A DNA stretch of 64,000 bases from Candidatus Omnitrophota bacterium (GCA_029261065.1 JAJDCB010000011.1:47168-111167), one strand, 5' to 3'. Shown: positions 1 through 30,500, counted from the stretch's first letter. Notes: generated by a model from the letters alone, not told the origin. A program made the numbers and translations.

Positions 1-560
1 TTGATGCCAAGGTTTACATTGATCAATAATGCGACTCAATCTTTAAGAGGAGCCACTCGATCCTTTGTGCATGGGAATTACAATCAATCCATCATCCAAT
101 TTACCAAAGCCATCAAACAATCGGATAACAAGTGGGATGAGCCTTATTTGGGACGAGGAAAGGTCTATTTGGAGCTTAAAGAATATAAATTTGCTGAAAT
201 GGATTTTCGAATGGCTTTATCTTTAGGAAGTGATAATCGTGAAGCGAAAATGTATTTAGGGCGTTCATTATACTTTCAAGGACAGTTTCATGCCGCGGAT
301 CAAATATTTTCACACCTAACGGTAGCTCAATTTGATCGTCGAGATTTTTATCTCTGGCAAGCAGCTCTGTTTATTCAATTAGAACAATGGAGACGTGCCC
401 TATTTGTTTTAAATGCCTATATTGATTTTATTCCTTCTCATCCGACGGCCCTGATATATCGTATCTATACACATACAAAACTCGATCAACTAGATTTAGC
501 GCATGAAGACATAAGAAGGCTTTTTGCCATTGGGTATGCTCATGATAAGTTTGATTTTAT
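1..560 (+). other. TPR-like repeat region (domain of giant ORF)
   Basis: Translation shows 34-residue helical repeats with the W/LG/Y...A...F...A pattern (e.g. ...GRGKVYLELKEYKFAEMDFRMALSLGSDNREAKMYLGRSLYFQGQFHAADQIF...). Confidence 0.5.
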
Positions 561-6500: not shown

Positions 6501-9500
6501 TTTATATTTTGAGAGTATTACTTTTGTTTTTATGGAAGTTTTATTAAATGCGATTTTTTATGGCAGCGATAACATAATTATTAAAACACGTTTGGAACGA
6601 AATAGGAAATATGTGGTTATTGAAATAGAAAATAAAGGTCGTTTAGGTGTTGATGAAGATAAATTATTCAATTTTTATCGTAGCTTTGCTGGTAAGAAAC
6701 TTGATATCGCGGTAACGGGTGATGGTTTTGGTTTAGCTTTGTCACGTCTCTTTGTGGAGTTACATGGGGGGACAATTAGAATTGAAGATTATAGAAGTTC
6801 ATCAGAAGAAAATTGGGTGCGCACAACAATAAGGTTGCCGAATGTTTCTAGTTTAGATGCTAATAGAAGAAAACAAAAGTTATTTAGAGAAAAGAGATCT
6901 TCAATGTCCCCAATGATAGAGCTAATAGACAAAGAAAAATTTAACTGGGATCATTTGAATCCTTTGTCTCAAGCTCCGCCGAAAGCTAATGCGTCATTTA
7001 AAAAGACCGCCACCTCCAGTCCACTTCAAACCCTCACAATTAATACAATTGACGTTAGTTTAAACCCAGTCCTTGACCCAACAGTATTGTCCTGGATGTT
7101 AGTGTTAGTACCTTTAGCTATTTTAGTTTTCCTTTTCCATTTTGCAGCCCATTATGTATCAAATGATCATCGACTTACCCAACTTAGAGAATGGTTTGCT
7201 GCTCAAACACGGGATCAGTTGTTACAAAAAGTTTATAATTCCGAAATGGGATTTTTTACAAGTCCATATTATCAAATAGCGAAAGCTGAGCGAAAGATTG
7301 CAAAGAGAATTGTTGCCCTCATAAAAAATCCAGAAGACTTAATGCAAGAGCCAAAGGTATTTAGCGATGTTGCCATTAAGACGCAATTGATAACGAGATT
7401 AAGACTCCTTTCCTTACCGATTGATTTTGTTATGGCTGTCTTGTCGGAGGTTAGTCAAAAAGATAAAAATTTAATGGTTCAAGAAAAGGCAAAAGAAGTA
7501 TTAAGCCGCCTAAGAGCTATCGGTGAGCAGTGGAGCAAGTTTACTCAAGCCATCTCTATAAGAGACAAAGATAATGATAATGAAGGGGCGTTAAAATTAT
7601 TTGAAGAAATTGAAGAAATGTTGCCAGATTGGGAGGCTGTTCATTTTGAAAAAGGAGTTACCTTTGAGGAGATGCATCGGTATGAACAAGCAGAACAGTC
7701 TTTTCAAGAAGCGGCAACATTAAGTAATAGTTCAAGAGCTTATACGAGATTGGGTCAGTTGCGTAATGATCGAAGAGATTATGAGGGCGCACAAACAGCC
7801 TATCGACAAAGTATTACAGCGTATAGAGGAGATTCGCAAACGTTACACTATTATCTCGGAGATGTTCAGGCGGAGTTAGAAAATTATGACGAAGCGATTC
7901 AAAATCTCAACGTAACAATCAAAGCCAAATCTCGGAGAAGCGATGAGATCAAGATGCGAAGGGATGCTCACCTAAGACTTGGTGAGATTTATGTTTATAA
8001 AGGAAATAGAGATAAGGCCTTACATAATATAGAAACGGCCCTTCATACAACAAAATTACAGGTAGCCATTGATTTATTGCCGTCTCTAAAGAAGTATATT
8101 TTTAATCGACCTGAAGGGCAGGAATTTTTTGAAATGTTGCAAGATTCAAAAATGTTTTCAGAAGAAAAAGAATCGATTCTAAAAATTATTGATCGGATAC
8201 AAAGCAACACAACAATTCAAAAACAATATCCAGAGCTTATGGTTAAGTTGGATGTTGAATTTAGGAGATGGGGCATGATGCCCAACATCAGTGAAGCGAC
8301 TAAGAAATCACTAAGGCTTAATGCAGAGTCTGTTGGAGCAAGAGTTGATCGTTTTGACTTTACTGTAGAGATGCTAAATATTTATACTTCTAAAGATTAC
8401 CAGATTTCAGATCGTTATTTTGTTGTAGAGACAAAATTAGTTCATTTGTATTTTATTCAAAGACAGACAGCGCGATCGTCACAAGAGTTATTATTTTTTG
8501 TCCAACGGGTATCTGATAAATCAATTCAATTAATTATCCCAGAGGATAATACAGTTATCACTTTACACGGTGATCAGCTTTATTGGCAAGGTTTACCTAT
8601 TAATACAATAACGCCACCCACTATATATCTGGCGGATCTCCAGCATTTAAGCCCGAGTGTGAAGAAATTTATTTTAGTTTCCAGCCCGATGCCCCCCCCA
8701 TCAGAATCAAGGCAAGAAGGAATTCCGAATTTTCAGGTTACTCGTGTATTTGTACTTATTCATGCTCTTTTATTTATCGTTTCACTATTGGTTAATTTAT
8801 CTTATAACGGTTTATTTATAGTATTAAGCGTTCTTGGAGGATTAATCGTTGATCGAAGTTATGGCGGACGAACGATAGAGCAAGTCTTTAGTGGGACAAT
8901 GATCTATGATCGACGGCTATATCAGTATATCCGTCACCCCATTTATCTTGGGTATAGTAATATATTTATAAGTTTATACTTGGCCACAGATTTATTTGCG
9001 ATAGAAATGTTTTCTTTAGTGTTATTGGTAGTGTTTTTACTAGGAATTATAGACGAAGATATCGCATTGAAAAATAAATTTAGTGCAATGGCAGAAACAA
9101 CCGATAATCCACAGGGGATTGCGGAAGTTGCCGCATACTTTGAATACAAAAATAAAACGCCTATTATTCTACCTAAAATTAGAAATATTAAATCTATGGT
9201 GATTGATATTATTTATGGAGAAGGATCATCGCCATTCAAAGGAATAAAAACCATCTATAAAGTCTGGAATATTCTTCATTTAACGTCGTTGTTGCTATTT
9301 AAATTATCCTTAAAAGGGATTTGGAAATTTATACGGGCTGCTTATTATTCGCCATTTAGATTCATTAGTTTTGTTGCAACGTTGGATAAACGAAGTTACA
9401 CACTTTTAAAATACATTGATCGTGACGGAGATGTGAACCTAAATCAGGTTTTAATTGATCTAGATAAAAATTTAATTTTTGGAATATACGAAGTAGTTGA

Positions 9501-12500
9501 CCTAAATATGTTTGAAGGCGTAATGAAAGTGCTTGGAGTTGATTCGAAACATATAAGAATTAAATCCAATGGGGCTCCATGGATGTTGCATCTTTTTGAT
9601 ACGTATCAAATGATGGGTTGGGGTGGCTATAAAAACGGAGTTCGAATTGAAAACTTAGATATGACACAATTTAGCTTTGTTTTTCATACACTATTTATGC
9701 CTAATGCACCGTACAAGTATATTTTGAACAAAAGAAGTCAACAGAAGATAATACAAAAAAGAAATCACACGCATTTAGATTCGAGACGAAAGGTAGTTGT
9801 TGTTGGGTCCGTAAATAGAGAGAATGTTGATTTTCTTGTCGATATTTATAATCAATTTGAACCCACTCAAAGGCCGTTATTGATTTTTGCGATGAGGAAC
9901 GATAATCAAATGACGAAAGAAAATCTTTCCTTTAGAGATGATATAAGCGTTGCCACACGTAGATCCGTTGATCCCTATTTAACAGCACAAAACATACCAT
10001 TTAAAGACTTAGATGTTGTTATTTTAACGACCCAAGGTGAATTGAAAGATTTATATGCAATCGCAGATGTAAGTATTATAGGACCAGATCAAAATATGAA
10101 TGAGTCTATGACAAATGAAGTCTTTACATTCCATTTTGGTAACAAAAATGAGTGGATCAATAACGCGTTAATTTTAAAAATAGCCAAAAAGTTTAATGCC
10201 GTCAAACAAATCCGTGTACCAACATTTTTTATAGACTTACAAGACGCGTTAAATAATCCAACTCAAAAGCAAGGAGCTCTTCGTAAATCTAATGAATACT
10301 TCGATAACATTATCATACCAACAGAACAGTTGCTTGCCAGATTATATATTGCCAACGCCCTATTAGGAGACGTCAAGACTGGCTCAAGTCCTCTTTACCT
10401 AATAGAAAGTGACAGGCACCAATTAAGCTCGCCCATGAGCGGGAATCGAAATAAAAGGGTGCCTGTCACGGATTATTTTTTTATTAGAAATTATTGGAAA
10501 TTTCGTCGTAAGGCACAAGTGAATGACGTGCATGTTGAAGATAGCATTGATGCAGAATTTACGACAGATAAAGAAGGAGAGGTTAAAGAAGACCCTTCAT
10601 CAGCTCTTAAAGAGCAAGGAGAAGGATATGGTTATAAACAAATTGTATTAAATATGACATCAATTTCAAGCCCATTAAATCCATCAGATATAAAGAAAGA
10701 GGGTATTGAAAGGGTTGTTCAACAATTAAACCAAAATGGTTTTAGCCAAAGACAATCTGAAATTATCGCGGATGAACTTGTCAGTAGCCTTAAGTGGCTT
10801 AAACGATGGTTTGCTAATTTTGAGGAGCTTAGTAAAAAACAACAAAATAAAATTTTAAAAGACGCCCTTTGGTATAGCAAAAATTTAAAATCTTATAAGA
10901 CGTATAAACATATTAGAAAAATTAAATTTTCTAGTCATTTGCTTAGCTTTATTATTATGTTAGTTGCGTTAAGAGGGATAGTTTTTGACGAAGACTTCTT
11001 GGTTTTAAATTGGATGACGTTAGTCCTTAGTATCGTATCAATTTTATTAACTATCGGGTATGAGATTTGGGATGTTATAACGGATCAAGGGTATTATTTA
11101 GAGAAAACAAACTCGGTAAAAATCAGAATTAAAGCTACGGATAATGAATCAAAATTAAGAGAGCGTGTCGCTCATGAGTTAGCGCATGATTTTCTTAAGA
11201 AAGAAATCGTTGTTGAAGCCTTTGCTCGTTTACGTCTTCTAGCAGGAGGACATCAACATATGAATCCTGATGTTGTCAAAGTCGTCGAGGAGTTTCCTGG
11301 TGATCTCAAAAAGGTTCAAGAAGTTCTTAAAGCCAGAGCCAAAAAACCAACAGGCATTTACTCTTATATTATTCTTAAATTCATCTATCCTTCCATATGG
11401 GAATATGATTACGCTCATCAACTTGCACAAGTCATCTATCATCTCTCCCAATACAACGATAAACGAGCCTTCCAGACGGTATTTCTATTAAATAAAAAGT
11501 ATTCTCTAGAAAAAGCATTAAAAATGAGTGCTGAGTCGAGTTCTGCAATGAGTGTGAAAGCCAATGATAAGAAGGTAAGAAAAATAACAAGTGACAGGCA
11601 CCAATTAAGCTCGCCCATGAGCGGGAATCGAAATAAAAGGGTGCCTGTCACGGATTATTTAGTTAATAGTTTACAGTTTAATTCATTAATAAGCTTAGAC
11701 GGCTTTAGAAGCAATTTAGAGTTAACCTCCAGCGAGAGAATAGGTTCTCGAGAATTGACCCTATTTATTCCTGTTTTTGCCAATTTAGCAATGAGACGAT
11801 CAGAGGAAGCTGGACGAGCGAGGCGGACATCAAAGCCTTTTTCACGGAGTTTGAGTGATATTTCTCTCGGTATATTTTCATCACAAATAATACGCATTAT
11901 TCAATTTTTTAATAGTTTACCTAAACGCTACGGATTCGCCGCGTTTCATAAGGTCACTGGCAAAGGAAAGGGCCGCTTTAATGTGCTGTTTGGTCAATTG
12001 AGGATAGTAACGGGTAAAAATCTCCGATGGGCTAACACCCGCTTGGAGAAGTTCAAGTACCAGGTAAACCATTATGCGAGTACCTTTAAAGCAGGGTTTA
12101 CCGTGGCAGATTTTTGGATTGATAGTTATATAATTTTTATAATTATTCATAAAAAGAAGTTCCAGCGCTTGATTAATATATTTAAAAGTAACATAGATAA
12201 TTCTTTAGGTCAAGTTGCGGTTGCGGAAAGTCGTGGACTTGGCTTTAGGCGTTCTTTAGTAAGCGTGAGCGAAGACATCATTATCCCGCAAGCAAGCTCA
12301 TCTCCGCTTAGCAGTAAGAAAGATCTATATAAATATAAATTTAATCAGATTAACTGGAAATCGGAGCGTCGTCGCGTGAAAGAGGCCCTTCGCCAGGTTA
12401 AAAACGGCAGACGCTTTAGCAATCGCATTACAGCATATGTGGATGGAGAACAAATATGGGGTAGGTCGGGACATAATGATATTTATGACTGGATGCCAGA

Positions 12501-15500
12501 TTATAAACGTGTCGCCATGTTCCGACCTGACCCTAGTTCTTTGATAGCTAGCACTCAAGAAAAGTCAGAAAATTTATCTCAAGAAATTATGATAATAAAA
12601 AGTGACAGGCACCAATTAAGCTCGTCAATGAGCGGGGATCGGCCTGCCGCGGATTATTTCCAAGCCTTCATCGTCGAACACACACAAGCCGCTACAGACA
12701 GGATTGAGTTTGCGCGTCAGCAGTTCTTAAAAATACAACAGATGACAAATCAGCAATTATTTGATGGCGCTATAAAAATTATTCGTCGAGGGATGGTGAA
12801 ATATGATCAAGACTTGGAAGATGTTATAAGAGCTTATTCTGAAAGAACAAAGGGGATAGGTTTAAATTTGGCTCGAGAAGCTTTGGTTAATGATGCGGCG
12901 GCGTTTATGGATGCTGTAATGAGTTATCAAATTTTGATAAGTGATCAACAACAAGAGGCCACTCTTGATCGTATCTTTGTGCGCGCCCAATCAGATGGGT
13001 TCTTAGATCTTCACATAGATAACCGTTTGACTTTGTACATGGACCATAATTTAAGGGAAGAAATTCTTAGTAATTTCTCTAAAGGGGTAGAGGAAGCAAA
13101 AATAAGGTTAACTCTTAATAAGCTTTTTAATATTTATATTGTTCGATTACTCCAATTGGTTTCTCTAAGAATTTGGGATGATCCGATTAATAATTTAATG
13201 GCATTACAAACATTAGTTGATGATTTAAATCATTTTACCAGTCAGGGGCAGAAACGACAGGATACGTTATTCGTCACACAGGCCACAACGCTTTTAGCTT
13301 TAGCTGTTTCAGCTACTGTTAATGCTAATGATGAAGAGCAATATTATCGTAAATTTGCGGATTTTATTAATAAGACATATCTTCTTAATGAGAATCAGCA
13401 GTTAGAACTTATGCTTGCCCTTGTTAAATTTAACGCTCAACACTTAGCGAGCTTGATTCGCTTTAAATCACGTGTAGCCGATATGTTTAGAAAAGAAAAT
13501 CGAATGGATTTCTATCTTGCTGTGCACGGAGTGATTGTTTTATTACAACACTATAAAAATTTAAAACAACAACATCAAACCGTAACCGTTGAAAAGATCA
13601 CAGAAGCCGTTCAAATGATATTTGAGACGGACAAGGAACCCTTTTTAGGATTAAGAGAGCCGGAAACATTAAGTGCTTTATTCACGCAGATTTTGGTGAA
13701 AAATAACCATATTGTCACAGACTACTACTTTTATTTAATTCACGACAATGCGAATGCATTGTTAAAGGACATGCAAGATTTTAATGTAGAAGGTAAAAAA
13801 TATGCACCGCTGTACAACGAAGTCTTGTCTCCCGACATTTTATTTGAGGCCATGATTCGCAACAAATTTCTAAAAAAGGATGAAAGCCTAAGAACCCATA
13901 ATTTCATTTTTGAGTCACTATTAGAATCCACACAAGATCCATTAAAAGCACAAGCTTTTCACAATATATTCAGCATTGAGACATGGGGGCTGGGTGTTTT
14001 TGGTAGAGAGCTTATTGATTTAGATAGGACATATGAGGTGTTAAGGACGTTTGGTTCAATTTCCAGCTCGCCTATAAATTATAACCCACCAGAGGCCATT
14101 ATAGTATCCCATAACCAAGGATTCCGTTTTGACAAAAGTTACGCGCGTATTATTATTGATGGATATCGTAAACTATCTAAGAAATCGGGTGTACTTTTAA
14201 AGAAGTCTTTGCGGAGTAGTGAAACAATGGATGTGTACGAAGGTATTTATCCTGTTGATTATTGGTCATTTAGATTTGATGACGTCTCGATAATTAGCAA
14301 TTACAGGCCGTTTCGTGCTTATCGTATTGAGCAAGAAGAGCGTGTGAGTACGACTTTTATGGCTTCACAAGAAGTTGTTTTAGCTACATTTGGTTGTTCG
14401 TCCTGTGCTCCTGTTTCATATTTTGGTGTTATACCAGAGGCCGGTGAACAAATAATCATGCAAGGACATATTATGGCTGGAATAACTGACCGCATTGGAG
14501 TTAATCAATTTCTTAGGATTAAAGAGGATGTTGATTTTTTAAGGGGGTTAGGTGTTCGTCATATTGAGGTGATTGCTTCGATTGATTATAGAGCTGCTTA
14601 TTGGCGAGAGAATCTTCAACAGTCTATTTGGACTCCAGATTTTTTTACCTTTCCTTCTGATCCAGAAGAAATTATTGGGGAACTAGGAGACGATGTAAAA
14701 GTAACAATCTTGACAACACCAAATAGGAGATTCATTAGAAGAGATATGTATGCAACAAAGTATGGTGTGGCTATTGTTCCTGCAATTGACCCGGAGGCTT
14801 TTCATGTGTTTGATTGGCAGGGGTCGTTGGAAGGGCAATCTTCTCCGACAAAGGCGTCTAGCCCAATGAGGATTAATCCTTTTGATACGCAAACGGAAAT
14901 TAATTTGTTTGAGTTAGCTCCAGATACACAATTTGAAATCGAGATATCTGATCTTAGATTAAGTAGCAATGGTGTCAATCTTGGATACCAATTGGGTCGA
15001 TTTATTCAACTGTTGAAACTTTCAAGAGAATTACAAGTGAGAGCCGAGAAGGGTGGGTTGAATGAAATGGTTGCTTCTTTAACTAAAGAAGAAAATTCTG
15101 AGAGTTTGATAAGTAGTTTCTTTAGTTCCGATGAAATTAAACATTCTCATCAAAAAGAAAGTGAATCCAACGAATATGTATTTGTAATGGAGATTTATAA
15201 TTTATTGCTTCAGTTCCTTTCAGCCAAGTTTAAAAAAGATCATCTTATGTGGTTACCTAGTGCTGCAGAGCAGGTACGTCTGAGATGGGAAACAGAGGTC
15301 GTAAGAAACAATTTTATTTCGGAGTATATTTCCAAACAAACAATTATAAAAATGATATCTATGGGTATTGAAGGGATGGAGCGGGTTTTCAATCCGGAAT
15401 CGGAAATTAAAAATTTGATTGGGTTGTTAACAGGATCCGGATTCAATATTAAAAGGACCAATGGTTATGGATGGGCGAAAGATCGTAGGCTATATCTCCC

Positions 15501-18500
15501 TCATTTAGAAGGAGAGCCTTATTATTATTTACAAGAATCTTTACTTGTAGCACAGATGCAAGAATATGCATTGGAGGGTGGATCAGTGGTTACAGGAGTC
15601 GCGCAAACACCATTTATTATCTTCTCGAATTCCATTCGTGAAGGTAAGATTTCTATGATCAAAAATTATTTAATCAAACATGTTCCTTCGTATAAAGATC
15701 TTAAGGTTTATACTTTTCCAAGTGGATGGATCACTTTATCGTATGAGAAAGAAAAGTTTTTGATTGCCAACACGCATATTGATACGGTCATTGGATTTAT
15801 TTCTAAAGAAGTAACGGAGCAAGACAGAAACATTCTACTCATTGACCCACTTTATCAAGCCGAAGTTTCCAATCACAGTGAGTATCAGCGATTCTTATCA
15901 GAACAAAAAGTAATCACACACACCATTGCCCTAACAGAAATACAATATAATCCTGCGAATTTTGGTGTTACACCACAAAGACAACTGGTTTTTAATTATA
16001 GCCCCGAAACCATACAAGGATTACAGTTAAAGAAAAATATGCACATGATGATTAAGGATCCAGAAGAAGCCATTGTTCATGTAGCCTCCCATCAGGGCTG
16101 CCTGGGTTGTTTAATGAATCTTGTTCCAAAAAGTAAGGAAAGGGAGGTTCGTATTATACCAACTATAATGATGATGGATCAAGGAAGTAGTCCAATGAAT
16201 AAAGTAGAACGATTCCATGCACTCTTCGAGCTTTTTAACGAGCAGTTAATGAATCTCGGTATTGATGGGGCACGAGGAAGTTTTCAAGATATGTTAAAAA
16301 TTATTGTGGAGCTGGATTCAGATGATGGTAATGGTGAGGTCTTTTTACAAAGGATTAAAGATAGTCTGGAAAATCATAAATCAATTACCATAGACAACTT
16401 AATATTTATGGATTATCACGAAACCATTCAGGCCATGCAAAGTACTTTACGTGAACTGGGCCATGTTATATCAACTTTTGCTAGTATCGGAGGAGATGTT
16501 GAGGAGTACATCCGTGATTATATGGATTTCAAAGAAGAAGTATTAATGATGGCTGACAATGAAAAGCCTATGGGTCAAACAACGCAACGTATTGCACAAG
16601 CTAATGAAACTTCGATTCAAGCATTAAACCACATGATGCAATACCAAAAAGAATTGATACGGCATTATCCTGCTAAATTAACAGGAGTCTTAATCTACGA
16701 TGAAACAGGCAAGCTTGGACTTATGACAGATCTTAACAAAACACGAGATCATCTCCTACATAATCCTGATGTCGTTGTTACATTCAGGTATACAAAACCC
16801 ATGTTTGATGGTGAAGGTGTTGCTGGTGCAAATCAGGATAAACTGAAACAGTCGATCATCGATGAGGTTCTTGAAGCGACATTTAATACGGGTGCGATCT
16901 ATGTCCATCGGTTAACACCTGAGCAATTTAATGATCCAAAAAATATCGGTCTTCGTATTGTGCTAAAAGAGGTAGAACATTTTGTTGAATCCCAACTGCG
17001 CTTAGAAACAGTGGTTCATTCACTATCCGATGCCTTTTCTAAATATGAAGAAAAGTTTATTGTTAATCAACCTATTCGAAGAGTAATAGGTCTAATCGAA
17101 CGATCAGAAATAGAGTTAAATAATGGAAACATTCAAAGAGCCAAAACAACCCTTAGCGATGCCATTACCATATTAAATTTAATAATAAATTATAGTGGTC
17201 TCGTTTCATCAACCGATATAGCTTATCAAACTCTTGTCATGACCGAGAGTGTAGATCCAATTAAACGGGCAAAAGAACTTCTGGAAATTATCGAAAATCG
17301 TTTACAAAATATAGAACTAAACCCTGAAGTGTATCTCGACCTGGCTGAACGCAGAAAACAACTTGCTCGTGAATCAGGTAGGTATGAAAAGTTCGACAGA
17401 TTATTACAGCTTGTAGGACCGATAAAGGTCAATGAGATGTTTTCAAAACATTTAGGTGAACTCAGCATAGCAAATAATGTAAGTGACCACTACCCATGGT
17501 ATTTCGATGTCAGATTATCCATTTTCCCAACGTTAGATATACCAGGTGTGCCAATTTCACTAATAGATGTAGATACCAATCAAATCATCGCAGAAGAAGT
17601 AATTCATTCTAGTTTAACCTACCTAGGATTTTCACTATCATTAGAAGAAGAGAGCACATCACTACAAATGGAAAAAGCAACATTTAAAGACATCATTCCT
17701 CATTCATATCGCCTTGAAGTTAGAAGTTCGTCCTCAATGCATGACAATCAAAATCAATTCGTGCCTGTCACTGATTATTACAATGATGGATCTGTCAATA
17801 GGTTGTTTGAAATATGGACCAAAGGAGCAAAGAGCATCAACGAGCTTATTTTTGAGGCGAGAAAATTAAATTTTACGGCAATTTTATATCAAGAGGGTAT
17901 TCTTAAATCAATAAAAGGAAATAAATACCATGATATAGATCCTCCTTATGCAAGGTATTTTGATAGCCACTTATTAATTAATCTGTTTGAAAATATTCGT
18001 CAGCATACCAATGACTACGCTCTTTATCTATGGCGTGAAAGTGATGAAGGGTTTGAAATTATTTTATTTGATTATGGGCCTGGTATCTTAAATCCTCTTG
18101 GAGAGCCCGTTTCAGACTTAGGAAAAATATTTGATGATTACTCATACAGTAAAGGTGGAATAGGATTCAAAGGCAAAAATGCGGGAGGAGGAGGTGGTTG
18201 GGGAACTCATTCATTTGCTGTTTTTTCTTATTTAACAAGACTAATTTCAGTAAACGCCGGATATGTTCGTGTCGCTGAAAAAGAGGACCCGGGCTTCAAG
18301 AAACTTAATCATGATATTGCTGTCAAGCAGGTGAATATACCTACGGAATCCCTTAATATTCGGCCTTCTCATTCTGGCGTGATTCTTCATGCATTTAATC
18401 CATTTAAAAAGTCCTATCTCGGAACATTTGCGGATGTATCTAACAATTCTATATTAGGAACAATTCAGACGACGAATGCCGTAACAGAACAAAGAGGGCC

Positions 18501-21500
18501 TTGGCAATTGCCAGTTGCTGCGGGATGGAACACTTTATCTATAGGCGATCAAGTTGAGCTGATCTATTTTGTTTCCAGTGAAGGGGAGAAACTCGTTATG
18601 ACCAGCGGGCGTGTCATTGATGCTTTCCAAGATGACTCCTTAATAGAAATGGACAAAGGAAGGACACTGAATAGTCACGATGTAAGGCGAGTGATAACTA
18701 CACGCGGAGAAGAGAAGACAGAGAATTGGCAACAAGTAAGAGGCGCGTTTTTTAGATTGGGTGTAAGCGACGGCTTGACGGTTCAAATCGAATATAGAGT
18801 GGACCGTATTATTAGTGAGCGAAAATCGGTAAGCGGGATTATCCAAGAGATTCCAACCAAAGAAAATACAGGGAACTTCGTTATTAAAATTCCTAAGAAA
18901 GTAAAATCATTTACCTTAAGCCTATCTGAATTAAAAGAGTTTAACCTAATTCAAAAGGCAAAAGCAAAAAGGGTCAGTTCCCCATTTAGCAAAACACTAT
19001 TAATAGATGGCACTGATCCTCAAGAAATATTATTTAATCAATGGTTTGGAGAGAATTCCGTGCTTAAAGGAACTTTCCTCCAGCAAATCGTAACAGAGGT
19101 TTTGATTGAAGAAAATAATCCGTATGCTTTAGATGTAAAAATTATTACGAAGGAAGGAGAGATTAAAATTTTTGTTAGACGTCCTTGGCCTGCTTTTTTA
19201 AGACCGGTATCGATAACATGGCTTTCGGTTGAATTTAATTCAGGTGACAATATACGTAAGCGCCATTCTAGAGATGTGTTAATGTTGATGCTTGACTGGC
19301 TTAAAATTAGAGGATTTAAGAAAGTTATACTCGATTTAAATGAGGGAAAAGCAGTGGGTTTCTTTAGGGCAACACTACCTAGTTGGGCGAAAGACGAAGG
19401 TGATATTACTTATCGTATTGGCGGTGTTGTTATGCATAAAGCTTTTATTTATTTGGAAAATATGGAATTTAGGCGGCAAGAACAACCAAGGGGCAATTCT
19501 CAAGGCTCCGACACCATCTCTACTTCATCACCCCTTTATCAGGAGGATGTTCTAATTCTTGAGAAAGGAACAGATCTTCATGCACAGATGATGAGCTCGC
19601 CTAATCCTTTGCAGTGGATTTATCAAGAATTTGTTGCCCCAAGCATCATTAAGCCGGTTCTTTTAAGGGTAACCGCGCTTGGTTTAGATCAGGCTTTATT
19701 TGTTGAAAAGGAGTTCGATTCTAACAAGGCTCTATTGATTAGTCAGTTAAAAACTATGATTCAAACAGGGCCTGTCTCGTTATTGACTGTAGGAAATGTA
19801 GGCGCAATAAGTTATTCTGATGAACTCATTGGTGTGGATCTGACTTATCAAGACAATGAATATCATTTAGAATTTGAGATTATCAAAGGAAGTCGATTGA
19901 CAGAGCTTGGGGTCAAGTCTCGACTTACCGACACCTTTTACTCAAGCAGCTCAATTCGTTCATCTGTAGTCAATTCGAGACTTGACCACGAAATTTCTGG
20001 GGCATTCTTGCCGTTAACTTTATTTCAGAATATTGACGAATCAATCGCTGAGGATAATCATCTGGCATTGCTTAAAAGAACGGTATCTGTAGATGGAAAT
20101 GATCATGAAGTTGTTGTTGATATCCAGGGCCGTTATTTGAGAGTGGATTCTTTGATCATTTTGACGAGACAACTTGTAGTGTCGGAAGATTCAAAAATTT
20201 ATCAGAGTAACGATGCCGTATTGTATACCAATGGCCCGGTTGAGTTTTTATCATTTGTCGTTCCAATCATTGTATCTATGTTCGACCATAGGGATCTGAT
20301 TAAAGACAAGACGGTATTTGAGTATGGTTCAGGTCAAGGTTTGCTTTTACTGGTGGCTCTAGGCCTTGGGGCAAAGCGGGTTGTTGGTATAGATTCTCGA
20401 CGTCATGACCATGAAAAAGCAAAGGAATTATTAGATAATTCGTTTTATGAAGGGCGTATATTTGAAAATTTAACAACCTTTTTTGATCATACACAACTCT
20501 TTGATGGGAAATATATTCTTATTAATGACAATATTAATGAATGGTTTAAATATGATCAGGACAGTCGCAATCAAATTCTCGGCTCAGATGAGCTAGTCTA
20601 TATTGTTAACATGGGACATTCTTATGACATTCATGAACAAATTTTATCAAATCAATTTGGGGAACACAATTTGAGACAAAAATTATCGATCCTTGGTGGA
20701 TTTTCAAATGATGATTATTACAGAGGCTTCGATAGGTTCGGCCATAAGAACACAGCAAATCAATTACGGAGAGGGAGAAGTCAATGGCATGTGGAAGAAG
20801 TAAATTACAATTTTGGAATTAGCTATACAGCCTTAGTTGTCCGGCCGAAAGGATCCTTGCCGGCTTTTGATTCTGGGGATGATGTGAGTGGGATAATAAG
20901 GGGCAGATTTTTTACTAAAGCTCGTTTGAAAGTAAAGCCAGCAAATGTCAGATTAGATCCCGGCACAAATAGTTCACCCTTAGCGTTAAGATTTATTGAT
21001 GAATATAAACGTTTAATACAGGACATAGGTGTGACAAGGGACGAGGCAAGATTTTACGGCACAGGTGAAGTGAGGGCATATGAGGTGGGTCAATGGTATG
21101 AACATTACGCGGCCGTGATGGAAAACGAAAATCAATTTGTTAGCGTGCAGGAGAAAACCAGAGACTTCCTATTTTATATTGCCGCTATAGAGCAAACGGA
21201 TTATGAGCACATGAGTAATATGACGATAGAAGGGAATAATAAAAAGTTAAAATTTTACAATCGGCTAGAACGCACCAGAAAATTATTTAATATTTCAGCT
21301 CACTTAAATATTTTGAATGATCAAGAATTGGCAGTTCTAACTGAAACGATTCGTGGCTATTGGTTGAAAAAAGGTTATGAGAAGAGGTTTGCCTTTAATA
21401 TTCTTGCAGGGCTTGTATACGATTACTATATCTATTCAGCAGAACGTTTTGAACGATTTGCGAAAAATGTGATCATTATCCTGGATGGCGGTGATCAAAA

Positions 21501-24500
21501 ACAAAAGATTGTTGGAACGCTGGCCTTTGGTTTTCTCTTATTTACGCATCTTATTACATACGGGGCGCATTATCCCAACCATCGCAGACCTCTGGACTGG
21601 GATATTTACAAAATTACTGTGCGCTATTACTTGTCTCAATTAATGGCTATCCGATTAAACCAGGGTAGTAACACTGTCATAGATAAAAAATTCATAATAT
21701 TACTTAATTGGTTTGCTCAGATTTTTACAGAATTTAGAATCTTTGATATGCGCATTGTTCAGAATGAAGTCGATCAATATAAACAACAATCGAATGATTT
21801 ATGGCCCAATGGCCGGGTGGATTCTATGCCATATTATTGGGGGGTGACGGGGACGCTTGGTCTTTTGACAAAAATTCGTCGATTAGATGGAAATGGATAT
21901 GTCCCTCAAAAAGTTATTGAACAGTTTATTGCCCAAATATATTCCATCAACTGGAATCAACAAGAATATCCTCATCCCAGCATGGTCTTTATGGACCATG
22001 GCAGTGCTTATCATCAAGTAGAAGATTTTAATATTCCATTTATTATAGCCAAAACGTTTATTGATTCGAATGCAGAGAGAAAGGAAGTAAATGTCAGGCA
22101 GCCCTTATTCTTTTCAAATGATTACTTTGATCCAAATTTTACGAAAAAGATTATATTGGCCGAGCCTGAGCATCCCGTTCAAGGGACAGCAGAAGAAAGA
22201 TTATTGTCCTTGGATCGCATGATGTTGAAACTCAAATTCGCCAGAAACTTTCCATGGGTTATGGTTGAGTACAATGCCAAATATAGGACTGAAGGTACAT
22301 CTTCACCGCTCGGAGGAAAAGAGAGTCGCGGTCCAATAAATAGAGCCGAGATGAGGCGTAGGATTCAACACAGGATTGAACGAGGAGAATCGGCTTGGCT
22401 TGTTAGTTTTCATGAGAATTTAGGGTGGATACTTTATACCACGGGCTTGATGAGAATTCTTGATTTTATTCTTAACCCGGTTTCTAAATATTATAAAAGA
22501 AAAGTGGAGAGTCAGACAGATTTCTTAAGTGTGATTAAGATGTTCGATCGGGCTTGGATTAAAGGAACATTATCACTGTTGACAGGTTCTGCTGGCGTGA
22601 TTTTTATTTGGTTAGGTTTTGATTCGTTTATTAAGGGTTTTGAATATTATTATATGTTTAGCCTTTCCCTTTTGGCGCTGATTTTAACGATATATTTAAA
22701 AACTTCCGCTCAGATGATTATTCATCATAGCGAACCCATTATTGAGAATAGAACGTTGCATGAGAGAAAGAGTGATGCAGAAGAACTGCAGCGTTTGAAT
22801 GACAACATATTGCTGGCTGAAAATAGAAAGGGCTATGAATGGTTCCAGACTTTAATTTATTTAACCATAGGCTTACCTGTTTTGGCGGGATTTTTGATTG
22901 CGGGGTATCTTATAGAAATAGTTTTGGTTAAAACCATATTTTATGGGCTTGGTCTTATTAGTTTTACTCTTTTATTTGGAATCTTAACCGTTGCTAACGA
23001 AAAAACAACACATAATATTACAAAACTGAAGAAAGAGAGAGATGCGTTATTGAATCATAAACGCATAAGAAAAGAATCAGAGGGTAATAAAGACTTGGAA
23101 ATTCAAGAGCTTAGCGAACCATCATTATCTTTTTCAGACAAAGATGAACATGGTAAACATAATGTTGGTGCTAGTTTTATTTCTTTTGCGGTTGCTGTTC
23201 ATGGGGTTGGATTCTTATGGAGTTACTTTGGCCTTGCGTCTTATTTCATATGGGCCGCACCAATAGGAATTTTTGGTGCTTTAATTATTTCTAGATCTAT
23301 GGGGCAAAGATCAATCAAACAAATTTTTAGAGGAGATATGATATATAACCAAAATTTATATCCGTATCTTCGTCATCCCATGTATTTAGGCTACTTCATT
23401 ATGTTTGCAAGCTTTTTAGGACTAGAGAATGTGTTTGTTAACAGCATATCTTGGGGATTAATACTTATATTCATTATAAAGATATTTACAGATGATAACG
23501 CATTAGAGGAAAAATTTGAAGAACTAAGAAAAAGTGCCATCAAGTCGGAACAAGAAGAAGCAGAAGTATATTTTGACTATAAAGGGAAGACGCCATCCAT
23601 TATTATTCAGCCCAAAAATATTAAGCCTTTTCTAAAGGATGTGTTTTTTGGTAATGATAAAGAATCGAATAAAGGAAAGGACAAGAATGGCTCATCACCA
23701 GCAAAACGATCACCTTTAGATGATTCAAATATTATTCAACTGTTTACATCAGGTGTTGATGGGTTAGATTTCAAAAATGCATCAATAGGGTTGCCAGAAC
23801 AAGGTCAGAGATTTGAATTGTGGCGGTATGATTCACTTTCAGATGAATTAAGGCCACAGGCTTTTGACGATATTGATCAAATGTATTCGCAGGTATTTGA
23901 AAGAGTCCTTAGTGTGGAAGAGAAAGAATTTGTTTTTTATGAACTTCGTTCTAATGAAAATACGGTGTTGTACTCTAGTGGGCATTTAACTTGCCAATCT
24001 TGCACCTTCAGAGCTATGCGGGATAACAATATTGTTATTGGGCATCATCATCTTTATTATCATCCGCAGTATTCTTTTGGTGCGGCACGAGCGTATCTAA
24101 AATATTTACTGGTGCTTAAGTTTTTAACAGAGAAGAAAAATAGATTTCGTAATATTCAGTTGATCCTTAATACAGATGACTCGTTGGATAAATTGCGTTT
24201 AGAGGAAGAAGCAGGGAAGTTAGGTATTGAAGTCATTTCACATATTTCACGAGACAGAAAAAAGTGGTTGGAAAGTGGTCAAAAACTTGTTGTTGATACA
24301 ATTGTTACTGCAGAACAGGTAGCATTTATGGAAAGGGTACTTGAGTCTAAAAATCATTCTGAATTCTATCAGGTTCCTTGGGAAAATATAACTCAAGGAG
24401 AATCATCAATAAGAGCAAGTGGTTCATCAAGCCCTCTCAAACTCGCCCTGCAGGCAACGCCTGGATTGACACCGGGGGATGTTCCTTTAGCCCAAACAGT

Positions 24501-27500
24501 TTTAATTGGTCACTCCGATACGTTTGAATATCTGAATGTTACGGATCAGCTTGTAAATGAGCAAACATTAGAGTTTCTTCAAGCTGGCCGTGACGTGATT
24601 ATGACAGTCCCTGACTTTCATGTAGAGCTACAAAGAATGATTAAAGAAGCGCAATTTGAGATTATGAAAGTCGCCGTTCTTACAACAATCGATCAAGTTC
24701 GCGAGATGAAGCGCGCCTTGAGGTCATCGTCTCCTTTCTTAAGCAAATCTCAAAAACGCAATGTGTTTGTCACGATTGTTTTATCAATTGCAGGTGTTCT
24801 GGCATTTACATACCCGGCTTACGGAGGCGGTGTATTTATATCATTGTTTGCTAGCAAGATATATTTCGATTTCAGTGTTGATCAAGCAAATAAGTTTCAA
24901 AAGGCGGTCATGAACGCGGCATATGAACACGATATCACGAATGATCTGGTTATAAACATAATCTGGAAGAAGCATAATACGAAAAATTGGGATGTGAAGG
25001 AAGGTGCTTTAAATATTAAAGGGAATATGTTTGCAACGACGATAGGCAGCAGTCTTTTCATATCGGTTGTTTATTATAATTTTGCTTTACTTCTTTTAGC
25101 AGGCGATTTTCGTCTTGACGATTTAGATTCATTGATAGGTGGTGTCGGCGTTGGATTGATAGCTTACGCCTTTCCTTATTTGAGTACCTACGCTCAAGTA
25201 ACACAAAAAATTGCCAAAGCAGATAGACTATTTAAAAAGGTTAAGAATGGTGAAAATACAGATGATGAAATTGAGGAATCAGATAGCGACTATATTAATC
25301 CAGTTTCTTCACCGTTTATTGAAAATTTTAAAGAATCAAGGATGAGTAATTCAGAAGATAGCAGACGCTTTAACAAAGCACTTGGTATGTTTAGGGTTAC
25401 AGAAGAAATCCGAATAAAAAGTGACAGGCACCAATTAAGCTCGCCGATGAGTGGGGATCGAGATAAAGGGGTGCCTGTCACGGATTATTTAAGCTCGCTC
25501 ATCCTGGTTATAGGATTAGTTCTTTCTATGTTGGCCGGTCAGGATATGATGCGGGGTGCCATGTTTAGTCTGACACCGTTATCGGAAATTTTTGCGACGA
25601 TGTTTTCTATTTGGATGATCTTTTCAGTACCAACTAAGGTGTTTACAGGAGCTGTGTATATTTATCTTCTTAATCAGGCCCTCATTAAGCCACTACGAGC
25701 GCCACCGCGCATTTCAGAAAAATCTGAAAAAGATAACAATTTAAGTCCTAAGACCAAACGACCAAGCTCCCCCATCCAGGCTATAGGATTAGTTCCTTAT
25801 ATATTGGCTGGTCAGGATATGATGGGGAATGTTTATACGATAAGAAAATATAATGCGTCGAGTGCAGTAGAAAGTTTCAAACATTCAATAAATAATATTG
25901 TTACCTTTCCGCACAATTCTTCTCGTATTTCTTTGGCAAATCAAGATATTGCAATGGGTAGGATGGATTCTGCTTTTGGAAAGCAAAGCATTAGGGTTCA
26001 TCCCTATTTATCCAAGTTTTTAGGAAGGGATAGGTCGAGTATAGGAGCTGACGGGAACTTCAACAAATTTTTTAAATTGATTCTTTTTTACAGAACTTTC
26101 CATCCGTTTAGCAACTTTAGCCGTAAAATATTGTTCGCCGCATTGTTGGCAGACGCCAGCAGGAACTCCACGAAAAATATAAAGTTTGCCGTTGGATCTA
26201 AGATCAACCGTTACCTTAGCTTCTTTAACAGCGCCTCCGCAAAAAGAACAATCACTATATTTATGTTTATTAGGCATTTATTTTCTCCTTTGTTCAGGAT
26301 TTATCCATTTAGGACGTTTGGGAATATAAACCGTTATAATTCGCAGCCATTTATTCGAAAGAATGCTACATACGATGTGAATAGATTTGCCTCTCGATTT
26401 TCCAAAGACAAGACAACTTTTCCCACGTTTATCTTCAGGGTAGCGCTCAATAATTTTACCTTTAATAATGGCAGTTTCGATGGCCTTCAGACTAATGTTT
26501 TCATTAAGTCTTTCTTTTTGCGCATGAAGACTGATTTCATATCGTTCATGAATAATGCAGGTTCTGAGGTTTTCAATGTTCATAAAATATTTTATTTTAT
26601 CTCAAGTTTAAATATATTCCCTTACCGAATTGCTCTTAAGATAACAGTTCCAAAGATTATTGTCAACCAGGGGGTCTTAACTTTGATAGGTAATCAAGCA
26701 AGCTCCGCCATCTTGGCTATAGGATTAGTTTCTTATATGTTGGCCGGTCAGGATATGATGCGGGATGCCATGTTTGGTTTGACGTCTTTACCGGACATCT
26801 TTGCGGCGATGTTTTCTATTTGGATACTCTTTTCATTACCAACTAAGGTGGTAACAGGAGCTGTGTATGTTTATCTTCTTAATCAGGCCTTCATTAAGCC
26901 ATTACGAGGGCCACCTAAAAAAGTTTCCAAAGGGCCTTCATCGCCTTTGGCAAATTTACCAAGATCATTCATCCTGGCTATAGGATTAGTTCTTTATATG
27001 TTGATCGGTCAGGATATAATGCGGGGTGCCATGTTTGGTCTGACGCCTTTATCGGAAATTTTTGCGACGATGTTTTCTATTTGGATGATTTTTTCAGTAC
27101 CAACTAAGGTGTTTACAGGAGCTGTGTATATTTATCTTCTTAATCTAGCCCTCATTAAGCCACTACGAGCGCCACCACGCATTTCAGAAAAATCTAAAAA
27201 AGATAATGATTCGAGTCCTAAGACCAATCGACCAAGCTCCCCCATCGAAAATAAAATTTATAAAAAGCTACCTGAACTATCTAAATATAAACCCGATAGG
27301 GAGGCTGGGGTATTCTGGGTGTGGGAAGCTAATATTCCATTAACAGATAGTCAAATAAGTTATTTTAACAGAGAGCTCAGTAAGGAAAAAAGATTTAAGC
27401 GTTCAGACTTTAAAGGTAATTATCGTATATATATAAATCCAAGACCATCAGGTATTATTCAAACCATTAAAATCATTCGAGACGTCATTAGTACTTTTGG

Positions 27501-30500
27501 TAGTGCGAGAACAAAGTTTAAATATATTGTTCCATCACAAAATATAATGGAAGTGGATGCGTCGCACCTAATGTACCAAGATTCATCAACATCAAAGATC
27601 GTTCTATATTTAGCGACATTACAAGATGCCCTGACTATGCTTGAAAGGCTGGCTCGGGAACCTGCATTGCAAACCATTAAATCAATGGGTTCCCTTACCA
27701 ACACATTAAGTTTTAATCACCTCATATCTGTTTCAGGGACACAAAGGGAAATATTTACTCTGAATCAGCCGTATAGCGATAACGTTCTCAATTTTGTTGA
27801 TCCGAAAACGGGACAAGGTAAGTACATCTGGACAGTTTATGCGGGATTTGAACGCACTCAAGAGTTAATTGAGCCGCTGAAGGAATTAAAGGAAAGGCTT
27901 GGAATACAAAATGATGCAAGTTCAGCAATAATAAAAAGTGACAGGCACCAATTAAGCTCACCCATGAGCGGGAATCGAAATAAAGGGGTGCCTGTTACGG
28001 ATTATTACACTTCAGCTGTGTCAACAGAACAAACTTCTGATATTGATATATGGTCTCTACAATGGAAGGGCGGGCCTAGGTCAATTTGGGGTGACGATAG
28101 TTTGAATTTAGCAAAGCTTATTACTCATGATTTAAATACTTTTTTTGAATCAATTAGGTTAAGTAATCGTCAATCATTAATTCTAGATGTAGGGACGGGA
28201 GCAGGAAAAGTTATTGAGGTGGCTTTACAGGTTTATAGACGGTTTAGAATACATGGCATTGATTATGCAGAAGTTAACCCTGATAATTATTCTCAACTAT
28301 TTCCAGCGTACTTTTACCGTATGTCCGCAGAAGCCTTAGCATTTAAGCAGAACACCTTTAGGTATTTAGTTAGTGCGTTTGCTTTGGAATATATGGACAT
28401 ACCAAAGGCTCTTCAGGAGTCTTACAGAGTCGCAGTTCCTGGAGCTGAGGTGCAATTATATCTACATCATCCTCTATCAGAAGTTGTGGAATATTCAGAG
28501 TTACTTCGAATCAGGGTTGAACGTATGCATCGCAACAATATTTTTGGACATGCAAGAAAGTATATAAATACACCTAGCACTAAAAACAAAAAGAATTTAA
28601 TTGGAGCTTATAATAAAATTGCAGGTAAGCGATTAGATGGTTCTTTAGATTATTTTAGAGCGTTGGTAGAAGGTCCATTAATGATACAGGAAACACGAGA
28701 AGATTTATTGGATGTGTTATTAATTAAAGAGAAGGGATTTAATATAGACTTGATAAGATCTAATTTAACCCTTGATGCGGCAAAGAAAATTCCATCTCAA
28801 GTCAAAGAACTAACAGAGTTACTTTCACAATCAGGATTTGTGGCAACCCGTAGAGAAGTTCTTTATATGGAAGGAAAAATATTTGGCTGGGCTGTGAATT
28901 TATATAAACCTACTTCCAGCCCAGTCAAAGAAGTAAGTCACGATGAAGTTTATGAACGAATCCTTACAGAGAGTTTCAGACATTATTCAGGTGTTTCATC
29001 TCATAGTGTGAGAAGAGCGATTGATTATTTACATACTCAGCGCGAATATCCTAAAACACAATTAATAACAATTAATCAGTTTTCAAAATCTAAACAAAAG
29101 ATGTTATTGAAGGCTATTCGTTACAGAGAACCTACCTTAATACAGAACCTAAAACATTTAAAGCCATCTTCACCTATTCATGACTTGGATAATAATATTT
29201 TAAAACGACCTCTATCTTTCTTGTTCTCAAAACTAAAATACTACAGAGCCCTCTCTATGATTAAAGGTTATAAATCCGCGTATGAACCTAATGATATTAA
29301 CAAAGCTTTACTGCACTTCTTCCCATTGTCTTACAAAATAGTTATCGCAACATCTTTGGAAGATTGGGAGCTTGTCTTAGAAAAATACAAGATAGAGGAC
29401 AGAGAGGTGGCTGGGTTTGTTGATTTAAAATTAAAAGTGTTGGCCATATATAAAGGTGGGCTAGATCAAAATAGTTATTTAACGCATGAGCTTCTTCACG
29501 TCATTCGGCTTTATGAACTTAGGCGTCGAATTCCGGATATTCGTAGTTATACACTTTTACATGCAAGTTTAAGAAATTATCCAGAGGTGTTAGAGAAGTT
29601 TATGGTGGTAATGGAAGAAATTTCGATTTCTTATTTTTCTGAAAAACCTGATTATGTATATTTGAAGTTTGAAGTTATTGAAGAGCTCCTTGTTTGGTTA
29701 ATGACAGAGATGTATTACTTTGATCAGGAAGACATGGAGTTAACAAACAAAGAACAACAGTTTTTTGTTCTGAGTGGAAAAGGAGCACGTATTCTGGCAG
29801 CAACGAAAGATTTAATTAGCCTGTTTCCCGATTCGAGTAAGGAATTATTTATTGATTATCTGTCAACGAACGGTTTTCCTCTTCCTCAAAATTCCACGTT
29901 AAAGATAAACTCTTCACCCCTTAAAACATTGACAGTATCTCAACCTGACCCTAGGTCTGTTCTACAAAATACTTCTAGTCCAATATCAAATGTTCAAAAT
30001 CAAAATGAAGTCAATCAAGATGATTTGAATGAAGAAATGGATTCTTTCTTTACTTTGATTTTCTCGAAATCATTTCAAAAAGTGACAATCTTTATTGTAG
30101 GTATGGGTTTAATAACAACAGGATTCTTGTGGGCATTTTATCCAACGGCAATACAGGTAGATTTGATTGCAAATTTTGTATTCTTTTTAGGAATGCTAAT
30201 CATTGCGGCTAGTTACTACTTAGGGGATATTTTTAAGAAAACTACTTCAATAACCCAGATGTTATTGTCAGGAAAGAAATTATCAGCGAATGATGCGTTG
30301 CGAGAATATCTAGATTATTCGTTTCATTTAGTACTTTATGCCGTTCCTTTTAATTTATTATATTTATTTATTTTAGATCCAACTAGAGCGCTTGTTGAGT
30401 GGACGTTCATTATTGTGATTGTTGTTAAACTTCTAACTTCCTTCTTAGATCAAAATAGGTTTTTCACTTATTCCTACAGTAAACGAATGAAAAATAGTTT

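Follow-up and report, generated by a model that had tools for sequence, protein, structure and literature searches.

In-frame palindromic inserts, probably REPIN-type elements, in a giant gene of a Candidatus Omnitrophota bacterium

REPINs are inverted doublets of a repetitive extragenic palindromic (REP) sequence that form a hairpin and are mobilised by RAYTs (REP-associated tyrosine transposases of the Y1/HUH type). They are almost always extragenic: in SBW25, 14 of 1,067 occurrences of the repeat 16-mers overlap genes (PMC3116915, PMC5581495). The Rickettsia palindromic elements (RPEs), about 100-150 bp long, are inserted in frame in protein-coding genes and are presented, in the part of PMC10969869 used here, as specific to Rickettsia and without an assigned transposase. 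[quoted passage not shown] For the Omnitrophota, 'multi-enzyme' giant proteins have been reported (bioRxiv 10.64898/2026.06.07.730766; 10.1101/2023.11.21.568195), in papers that mention neither palindromic inserts nor antisense cassettes nor a boundary motif. Here we describe 64,000 nt of DNA from a Candidatus Omnitrophota bacterium (GCA_029261065.1, JAJDCB010000011.1:47168-111167; this whole stretch is called the window below), in which six copies, full or decayed, of a 78-nt palindromic element lie in frame within a single giant gene. We consider it probable that these units are REPIN-type non-autonomous mobile elements inserted in that gene.

Frame +0 of the window exhibits no stop in 21,333 codons, and each of the other five frames exhibits 1,019-2,226. 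In this frame, Pfam identifies TPR, LOG, three HATPase_c, a methyltransferase, a Glu/Leu dehydrogenase, HEAT, a transglycosylase and Mpv17. Since unrelated enzyme and scaffold domains share one stop-free frame, the window is part of a giant multi-enzyme gene. Its tiling with unrelated enzyme domains and HEAT/TPR scaffolds, its frame of more than 21,000 codons and its AT-rich sequence resemble the giant proteins described for Omnitrophota.

Allowing at most one mismatch, the core sequence GTGACAGGCAC occurs 10 times in the window against 0.31 occurrences expected, and no shuffle reached 10. The arms of the element are 11 nt long, GTGACAGGCAC and its reverse complement GTGCCTGTCAC. They form four full inverted doublets (arm starts 10409/10459, 11591/11641, 25421/25471 and 27938/27988, the 27988 arm having one mismatch), in which a spacer separates two inverted cores GTGACAGGCAC(C) lying about 37-39 nt apart. 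Two arms stand singly, a 5' arm at 12602 (copy 3) and a 3' arm at 17761 (degenerate copy). Repeat finding, an nhmmer DNA profile and a protein profile recovered the same five copies and the degenerate one, and none of the three detected a further copy in the 64 kb; a core scan with two mismatches added just three matches in the window, which is the chance level. The common unit is 78 nt or 26 codons long (AATA...TTATT(T)), not the 72 bp or so given in an earlier note on this DNA, and each full copy contributes a 26-aa peptide to the giant protein. All copies are located within nt 10,401-28,007: four have the full 78 nt, one has lost 12 nt in frame and one is half decayed (Table 1). The earlier note had counted five near-identical copies and a degenerate one, all sharing terminal inverted repeats. 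The six sites stand, but copy 3 has lost 12 nt and has its 3' arm mutated to GCCTGCCGC, and the degenerate copy lacks the 5' arm. The degenerate copy (nhmmer E = 0.0014, protein HMM E = 4.6e-5) nevertheless keeps the SS[PS]M-x7-VPVTDY spacing of the full copies.

Folding, which the earlier note had suggested as a check, supports a hairpin in the full copies, with a 12-bp stem, energies of -28 to -33 kcal/mol and z from -5 to -6 (copy 1: 12 bp, -30.6 kcal/mol, z -5.7). Neither copy 3, of which the fold is no longer significant (z -1.8), nor the degenerate copy folds in this way. The single arm change of copy 5 (GTC to GTT) retains a G-U pair in the RNA of the + strand. No Rfam family matched the window at its gathering score, and a reading of GGCAC...TGC as a sigma-54 promoter was rejected for its wrong spacing.

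Copies 1 and 2 are identical over codons 3-25, and over the same codons the four full copies exhibit 7 variable sites, 4 synonymous and 3 non-synonymous. The arms exhibit 1 change in 96 positions across the four full copies, and the 39-nt spacer six variable sites. In the alignment, the similarity between copies stops abruptly and the flanks are unrelated. The match at synonymous sites, together with the unrelated flanks, therefore indicates recent insertion at the DNA level rather than a protein repeat of long standing. The earlier note had named an ancient repeat of the protein, with divergence at synonymous sites, as what would overturn its reading; the copies do not exhibit this.

All six copies have the same orientation and lie in + frame 0. 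Of the six frames of the element, one alone is open, and all copies use that one; the length of the element is a multiple of three, as is that of the deletion in copy 3. Under random placement, the chance that six copies fall in one orientation and frame is about (1/6)^5 by our own calculation. This common one-in-six placement suggests, as the filter, selection keeping the giant frame open: all copies share orientation and frame because only such insertions leave that frame intact. No direct repeat flanks any of the window copies, and this lack of a target-site duplication is as expected for Y1 transposases.

The same arms define a much wider repeat family. We scanned genome and metagenome contig collections totalling 596 Gb for the arm pattern GTGACAGGCAC-N30-50-GTGCCTGTCAC and found at least 119 loci in genomes and at least 120 in metagenomes (at least 239), against about 0.7 expected by chance (own calculation). 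An exact 23-mer of the element is absent from both collections. The hosts belong to more than 10 phyla and comprise Planctomycetota, Chloroflexota, Omnitrophota, Aegiribacteria, Bacillota, Acidobacteriota, Oxalobacteraceae, Bacteroides, Myxococcales and others; the inner flank of the window core is closest to the Omnitrophota variants. The loci are long palindromes with an invariant 11-nt core (e.g. L001, L013, L062, L163, L180), and the commonest core-to-core length, 61 nt, is that of the window copies. Many copies per genome are found, notably in Planctomycetota, as in many contigs of the Planctomycetaceae bin binchicken_co17_32, and the core family is very abundant in some Planctomycetaceae genomes. 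Beside the core, 6-8 stem positions on each side are 59-94% complementary across the family, against 25-63% with shuffled partners, and the pairing uses all four pair types while the sequence differs between lineages. Compensatory stem changes are thus seen across the family, whereas the window itself offers just one informative change. Family units also occur as 25-nt tandem or inverted arrays, and most of the AT-rich members elsewhere are extragenic. A small hairpin within each arm, considered as a further feature, is present in many AT-rich members, but the window copies reach just 3 bp. Rfam returned tRNAs only on 16 family loci, with no family for the repeat, and a full-text literature search for the 11-mer returned unrelated primer sequences only.

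Two of the loci connect the family with RAYTs. L180 encodes a 224-aa Y1_Tnp protein (Pfam 1.7e-12) with a full exact-core doublet on both sides of its gene, and the Butyrivibrio locus L062 encodes a RAYT homologue (35% identity) flanked by exact-core arrays. Among the 239 matches listed, a RAYT profile recovered these two only. The protein family has at least 7,106 members (E <= 1e-10), among which one bears the name REP-associated tyrosine transposase. Hairpins with the variant cores GGTGACTGTCCC and GTAACTGGAAC flank relatives at 55-68% identity, and the occurrence of variant cores beside related RAYTs indicates that the core changes with the enzyme. Clustering of the open reading frames (ORFs) neighbouring the 239 listed loci gave no recurrent gene, only artefacts (translated repeats, common sensor kinases).

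A family member also occurs inside an unrelated gene. In metagenome contig Ga0207074_1198 (3533-3587, locus L164), it is located within the ORF of a valyl-tRNA synthetase (ValRS; tRNA-synt_1, 1e-145) and is read in the same DRH...VPVT frame as the window copies (KSRDRHDFLETSREGKLVPVTT). Compared with the Thermus ValRS structure 1GAX, 17 residues (DRHDFLETSREGKLVPV) form a clean gap between conserved blocks; the insert adds them in a loop that the solved Thermus enzyme lacks. RPE-like in-frame behaviour is therefore real for this repeat family. Together with the identity at synonymous sites, the unrelated flanks, the length in whole codons and the use of the one open frame, the ValRS case bears out the description of the window copies, in the earlier note, as RPE-like palindromes inserted in frame at the DNA level.

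Copy 1 is located in an inter-domain linker: upstream-domain homology runs up to aa ~3454 and stops 13 residues short of the copy, and the next conserved block follows about 100 aa further on. It is the sole site that could be mapped against homologues. Copy 5 lies in a linker about 60 aa upstream of the methyltransferase domain, and an SS(P/A/S/L)+hydrophobic site precedes every copy by 4-36 aa. With aa 2951-3900 as the query, a full HMMER search returned remote domain-level relatives only, and neither a 710-aa stretch around copy 5 nor a 40-aa stretch containing the peptide had relatives among 5.8 billion proteins. A segment KS(K)SRRF(S/N)K...SRLxEEIR(V/I) occurs three times, about 17 kb apart (25360-25410, 42352-42432, 59077-59157), directly after SSP(L/I) at 42.4 and 59.1 kb, and about 20 aa after SSPF at 25.4 kb, where it directly precedes copy 4. 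The SRRFxK...EEIR[IV] paralogues at 42.4 and 59.1 kb are uninformative as an element-free counterpart of copy 4, the downstream sequence being different.

Like a REPIN, the element has two inverted copies of a short conserved core, with a spacer that is less conserved, and is predicted to form a hairpin. The resemblance extends to the many copies per genome, to RAYT genes flanked by the same repeat (L180, L062), to a core that covaries with the RAYT, to compensatory stem changes and to decay into single-arm remnants. The multicopy inverted-doublet hairpin, the RAYT genes flanked by the repeat and the compensatory changes thus make the family REPIN-type. It differs in that its 11-nt core does not vary among more than 10 phyla, whereas REPs as described are specific to a lineage. 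Like RPEs, the window copies are palindromic in-frame inserts that add a conserved peptide to a coding gene without destroying it. In contrast, the unit is 78 bp long, is a REP doublet of a RAYT-linked family and resides in a giant multi-enzyme gene, and the RPE label applies to behaviour only. MITEs and ERIC elements are similarly small and non-autonomous, have inverted ends and are at times inside ORFs and translated. Unlike classical MITEs, the copies lack a target-site duplication and have their conserved core inside the stem, with the lineage-specific sequence outside it, and the associated enzyme is of the Y1/HUH type instead of a DDE transposase. Integron attC sites differ as well, since the spacing to cassettes is irregular here, two cassettes lack the element and the arms are not of the GTTRRRY type. 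Judged from its build as a REP doublet and the RAYT link of its family, the element would best be filed as a RAYT-linked REPIN/REP-type element and not as a member of the Rickettsia families, RPEs having been compared by behaviour and description.

The peptide encoded by the element matches a recurrent motif of its host. SSP occurs at 59 sites of the giant protein against 3.9 expected (e.g. at nt 1060, 5857, 10384, 25765, 35734 and 63073), and the next residue is L, I, M, F or V at 51 of the 59. All Ser and Pro codons are used at these sites; SSP+hydrophobic is therefore a protein-level motif. The sites are often clustered, 6-50 aa apart, and their median spacing is roughly protein-sized. We regard the motif as a candidate for a module boundary or a processing site in the giant protein. 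Its reading as a mark of internal start codons was rejected, the fourth codon being mostly CTT, ATA, TTA or TTT. QLSSPM is present in four of the six copies; the SSPM site that the earlier note had assigned to every copy is SSSM in copy 3 and in the degenerate copy. QLSSPM also occurs at aa 1951, outside any element, where the codon differs at every position except Met. The link between the element and the boundary motif, already drawn in the earlier note, is thus real, and may mean tolerance (linker mimicry), exaptation or the capture of a host sequence. A variant of the motif, SSLI, opens a tandem membrane-like module at most one codon after copy 4. The resemblance of TTAAGCTCGCCCAT in the element to the start of this module (13/14 nt) has no statistical support (nhmmer E = 32).

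The history of the copies is probably as follows. A RAYT encoded elsewhere in the source genome would have mobilised the element in trans, presumably in the form of single-stranded DNA and with no target-site duplication, and six or more sites of the giant gene would have received it, the two inverted REP cores around the spacer letting a single strand fold into a long hairpin. A purifying filter on frame would have left, as survivors, the insertions in the sole open orientation and frame. Copy 3 and the degenerate copy then decayed by in-frame deletion and point mutation. The peptide would have been tolerated, and possibly favoured, since QLSSPM is the recurrent linker or boundary motif of the giant protein.

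Several observations weigh against this account. The six window copies lie inside a gene and are probably translated in frame with it, whereas REPINs are extragenic by definition. A profile search detected no RAYT gene in the 64-kb window, and mobilisation by a RAYT of the source genome is something that we infer. Searches of the 5.8 billion proteins yielded no insert-free orthologous site for comparison. All copies lie within 18 kb of the 64-kb window, so that local spread by recombination would also fit. Beyond the 12-bp core stem, palindromy is weaker in the window copies than in typical family members, with three mismatches just outside the core and one extra pair inside. Finally, the presence of SSPM in the element, for which we estimate a chance of about 1e-3 in a random 26-aa peptide, hints at selection at the protein level and is not predicted by a purely selfish-DNA account.

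Table 1. Position and content of the element copies, the host gene and the antisense cassettes in the window
Feature	Coordinates	Strand	Description
Copy 1	10401..10478	+	encodes IESDRHQLSSPMSGNRNKRVPVTDYF; both 11-nt arms exact
Copy 2	11583..11660	+	encodes ITSDRHQLSSPMSGNRNKRVPVTDYL; full inverted doublet
Copy 3, decaying	12594..12659	+	encodes IKSDRHQLSSSMSGDRPAADY; 12-nt in-frame deletion; nhmmer E = 4e-16
Degenerate copy	17728..17780	+	3' half kept (SSSMHDNQNQFVPVTDY); exact 3' arm GTGCCTGTCAC; 5' arm lost
Copy 4	25413..25490	+	encodes IKSDRHQLSSPMSGDRDKGVPVTDYL; fold -32.6 kcal/mol, z -6.2
Copy 5	27930..28007	+	encodes IKSDRHQLSSPMSGNRNKGVPVTDYY; one arm change
Host giant gene, one stop-free frame, open past both window ends	1..63999	+	at least 21,333 codons
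DUF433 antitoxin and truncated DUF5615 toxin, between copies 2 and 3	11655..12150	-	DUF433 1.5e-23; DUF5615 E = 1.5e-4
DUF4258 toxin and MqsA-like zinc-finger antitoxin, between copies 4 and 5	26020..26583	-	DUF4258 1e-21; MqsA_antitoxin 1.9e-3
BrnT/CopG cassette, no element nearby	32539-33075	-	within giant frame
PIN_3 cassette, no element nearby	about 33519-34155	-	within giant frame; PIN_3 33519-33965

Four toxin-antitoxin cassettes lie antisense to the giant gene, the frame of which is open through all of them (Table 1). Copies of the element do bracket two of these cassettes in position, as the earlier note had observed, but the bracketing is loose, the cassettes are antisense, and copy 2 alone directly abuts one. 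The DUF5615 ORF (11655-11897, - strand) matches only positions 1-46 of the 110 of its profile, the DUF433 antitoxin being full length, and its stop codon (TTA at 11655-11657 on the + strand) lies within the right end of copy 2. Copy 2 thus abuts, and appears to truncate, the DUF5615 toxin gene. The distances between element and cassette are irregular (0, 444, 530 and 1,347 nt), and the association looks regional, reflecting an insertion-tolerant zone, and not mechanistic.

Codon alignment with the giant frame is seen for six cassette genes, five with Pfam matches and one an unassigned ORF. TTA, CTA and TCA, which the giant frame would read as stops, are absent from their 38 Leu and 29 Ser codons, and ACA and GCA, which it would read as Cys, from their 22 Thr and 24 Ala codons. 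Both strands look to be under selection at the cassettes. The giant protein has just 12 cysteines in its 21,333 residues, all of them in CxxC or CxC pairs (aa 4799/4802, 5367/5370, 7998/8001, 18703/18706, 19890/19893 and 20023/20025). Between copies 4 and 5 (25491-27246), tandem membrane-like modules AIGLVxYxLAGQDMM... occur in three to four copies of 70-93% identity. The DUF4258/zinc-finger cassette stands between a cut-off module start (25756-25831) and a full module (26692-), with a mutual identity of 86%, which looks like a long duplication around the cassette. Just upstream of the DUF4258 gene, a promoter-like TTGACA-17-TATCTT with an upstream TG is present at 26666-26638 (- strand); to judge by this sequence, the cassette may be expressed from within the giant gene. 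A promoter and terminator scan of the window revealed no excess.

Four other explanations may be considered for the 78-nt units, each less well supported than the REPIN account. They might be protein-level linker modules, carrying the SSPM motif and spread by intragenic duplication or gene conversion, with the palindrome incidental. The strength of the SSP+hydrophobic motif and its use of all Ser and Pro codons would agree with this, as would the differently encoded QLSSPM outside the elements and the confinement of the copies, in one frame and orientation, to 18 kb. The identity of the copies, however, reaches synonymous sites and ends sharply at unrelated flanks, and a perfect 12-bp inverted repeat has no protein-level rationale. 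Since the 11-nt arms, moreover, define hundreds of non-coding palindromes in other phyla, flank RAYT genes and constitute an in-frame insert in the unrelated ValRS gene, we find this explanation distinctly unlikely. Given that REPINs are normally extragenic (PMC3116915), the copies could also be relics of gene fusion, that is, REPINs of intergenic spacers engulfed when neighbouring genes were fused into the giant frame, a mosaic of enzyme-sized modules in which the copies lie at module boundaries near SSP+hydrophobic sites. This appears somewhat less probable again. The complete identity of copies 1 and 2 and the near identity of copies 4 and 5, amid flanking modules without nucleotide similarity, indicate a recent spread; the frame looks long-established because the antisense genes are purged of giant-frame stop and Cys codons; and six independent spacers would each have needed an open frame and a length in whole codons.

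REP elements of E. coli affect mRNA stability, and by a comparable exaptation the hairpins might be kept for an RNA-level role in the long transcript, as a processing site, an exonuclease barrier or a translation pause. A stable hairpin is indeed predicted on the + strand, and the sole arm substitution, in copy 5, keeps a G-U pair in the + RNA where the other strand would have a C-A mismatch. Yet a single substitution is informative, the minus strand forms an equally good fold, the hairpin has been lost in two of the six copies with the frame intact, and neither an Rfam match nor a terminator-like excess was found in the window; we rate such a role as slightly less credible still than the fusion relics. 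It is very improbable, lastly, that the elements are attC-like recombination sites that delivered the toxin-antitoxin cassettes. The bracketing of the DUF433/DUF5615 cassette by copies 2 and 3 and of the DUF4258/zinc-finger cassette by copies 4 and 5, with copy 2 abutting a toxin gene, would fit such sites. Against this, the distances are irregular, the brackets enclose real modules of the giant gene, and the BrnT/CopG and PIN_3 cassettes (32.5-34.2 kb) have neither element nor remnant nearby. Elsewhere the family is tied to RAYT genes and not to integrases, neighbour clustering gave no recurrent gene, and the listed loci largely show no preference for toxin-antitoxin neighbours.

In-frame palindromic inserts and REPIN/RAYT systems are each already known separately. 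What appears to be new is that a REPIN-type element lies in frame within a giant gene, that a REP core is invariant over many phyla, and that the element bears the boundary motif of its host protein. REPINs have been regarded as strictly extragenic and lineage-specific, and in-frame palindromic inserts have been known mainly from Rickettsia; the present case joins both. A RAYT-linked REP family can inhabit coding sequence, that of a giant gene here and that of an essential tRNA synthetase elsewhere. The six same-frame insertions and the codon-purged antisense genes are evidence for selection on the open frame, which is probably translated. SSP+hydrophobic provides a concrete candidate for the module boundaries or cleavage points, which the literature on giant proteins calls unknown. 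A bolder and, in our opinion, unlikely possibility is that the element is a mobile 'linker cassette' co-adapted to giant polyprotein genes, of which the spacer has evolved to encode the SSP+hydrophobic boundary motif of the host, perhaps a processing site. If so, DNA that is inserted, the translated antisense toxin-antitoxin cargo among it, would have boundary sites on both sides and would undergo insulation or trimming at the level of the protein, and a REP/RAYT system with an 11-nt core found across more than 10 phyla would routinely colonise coding sequence.

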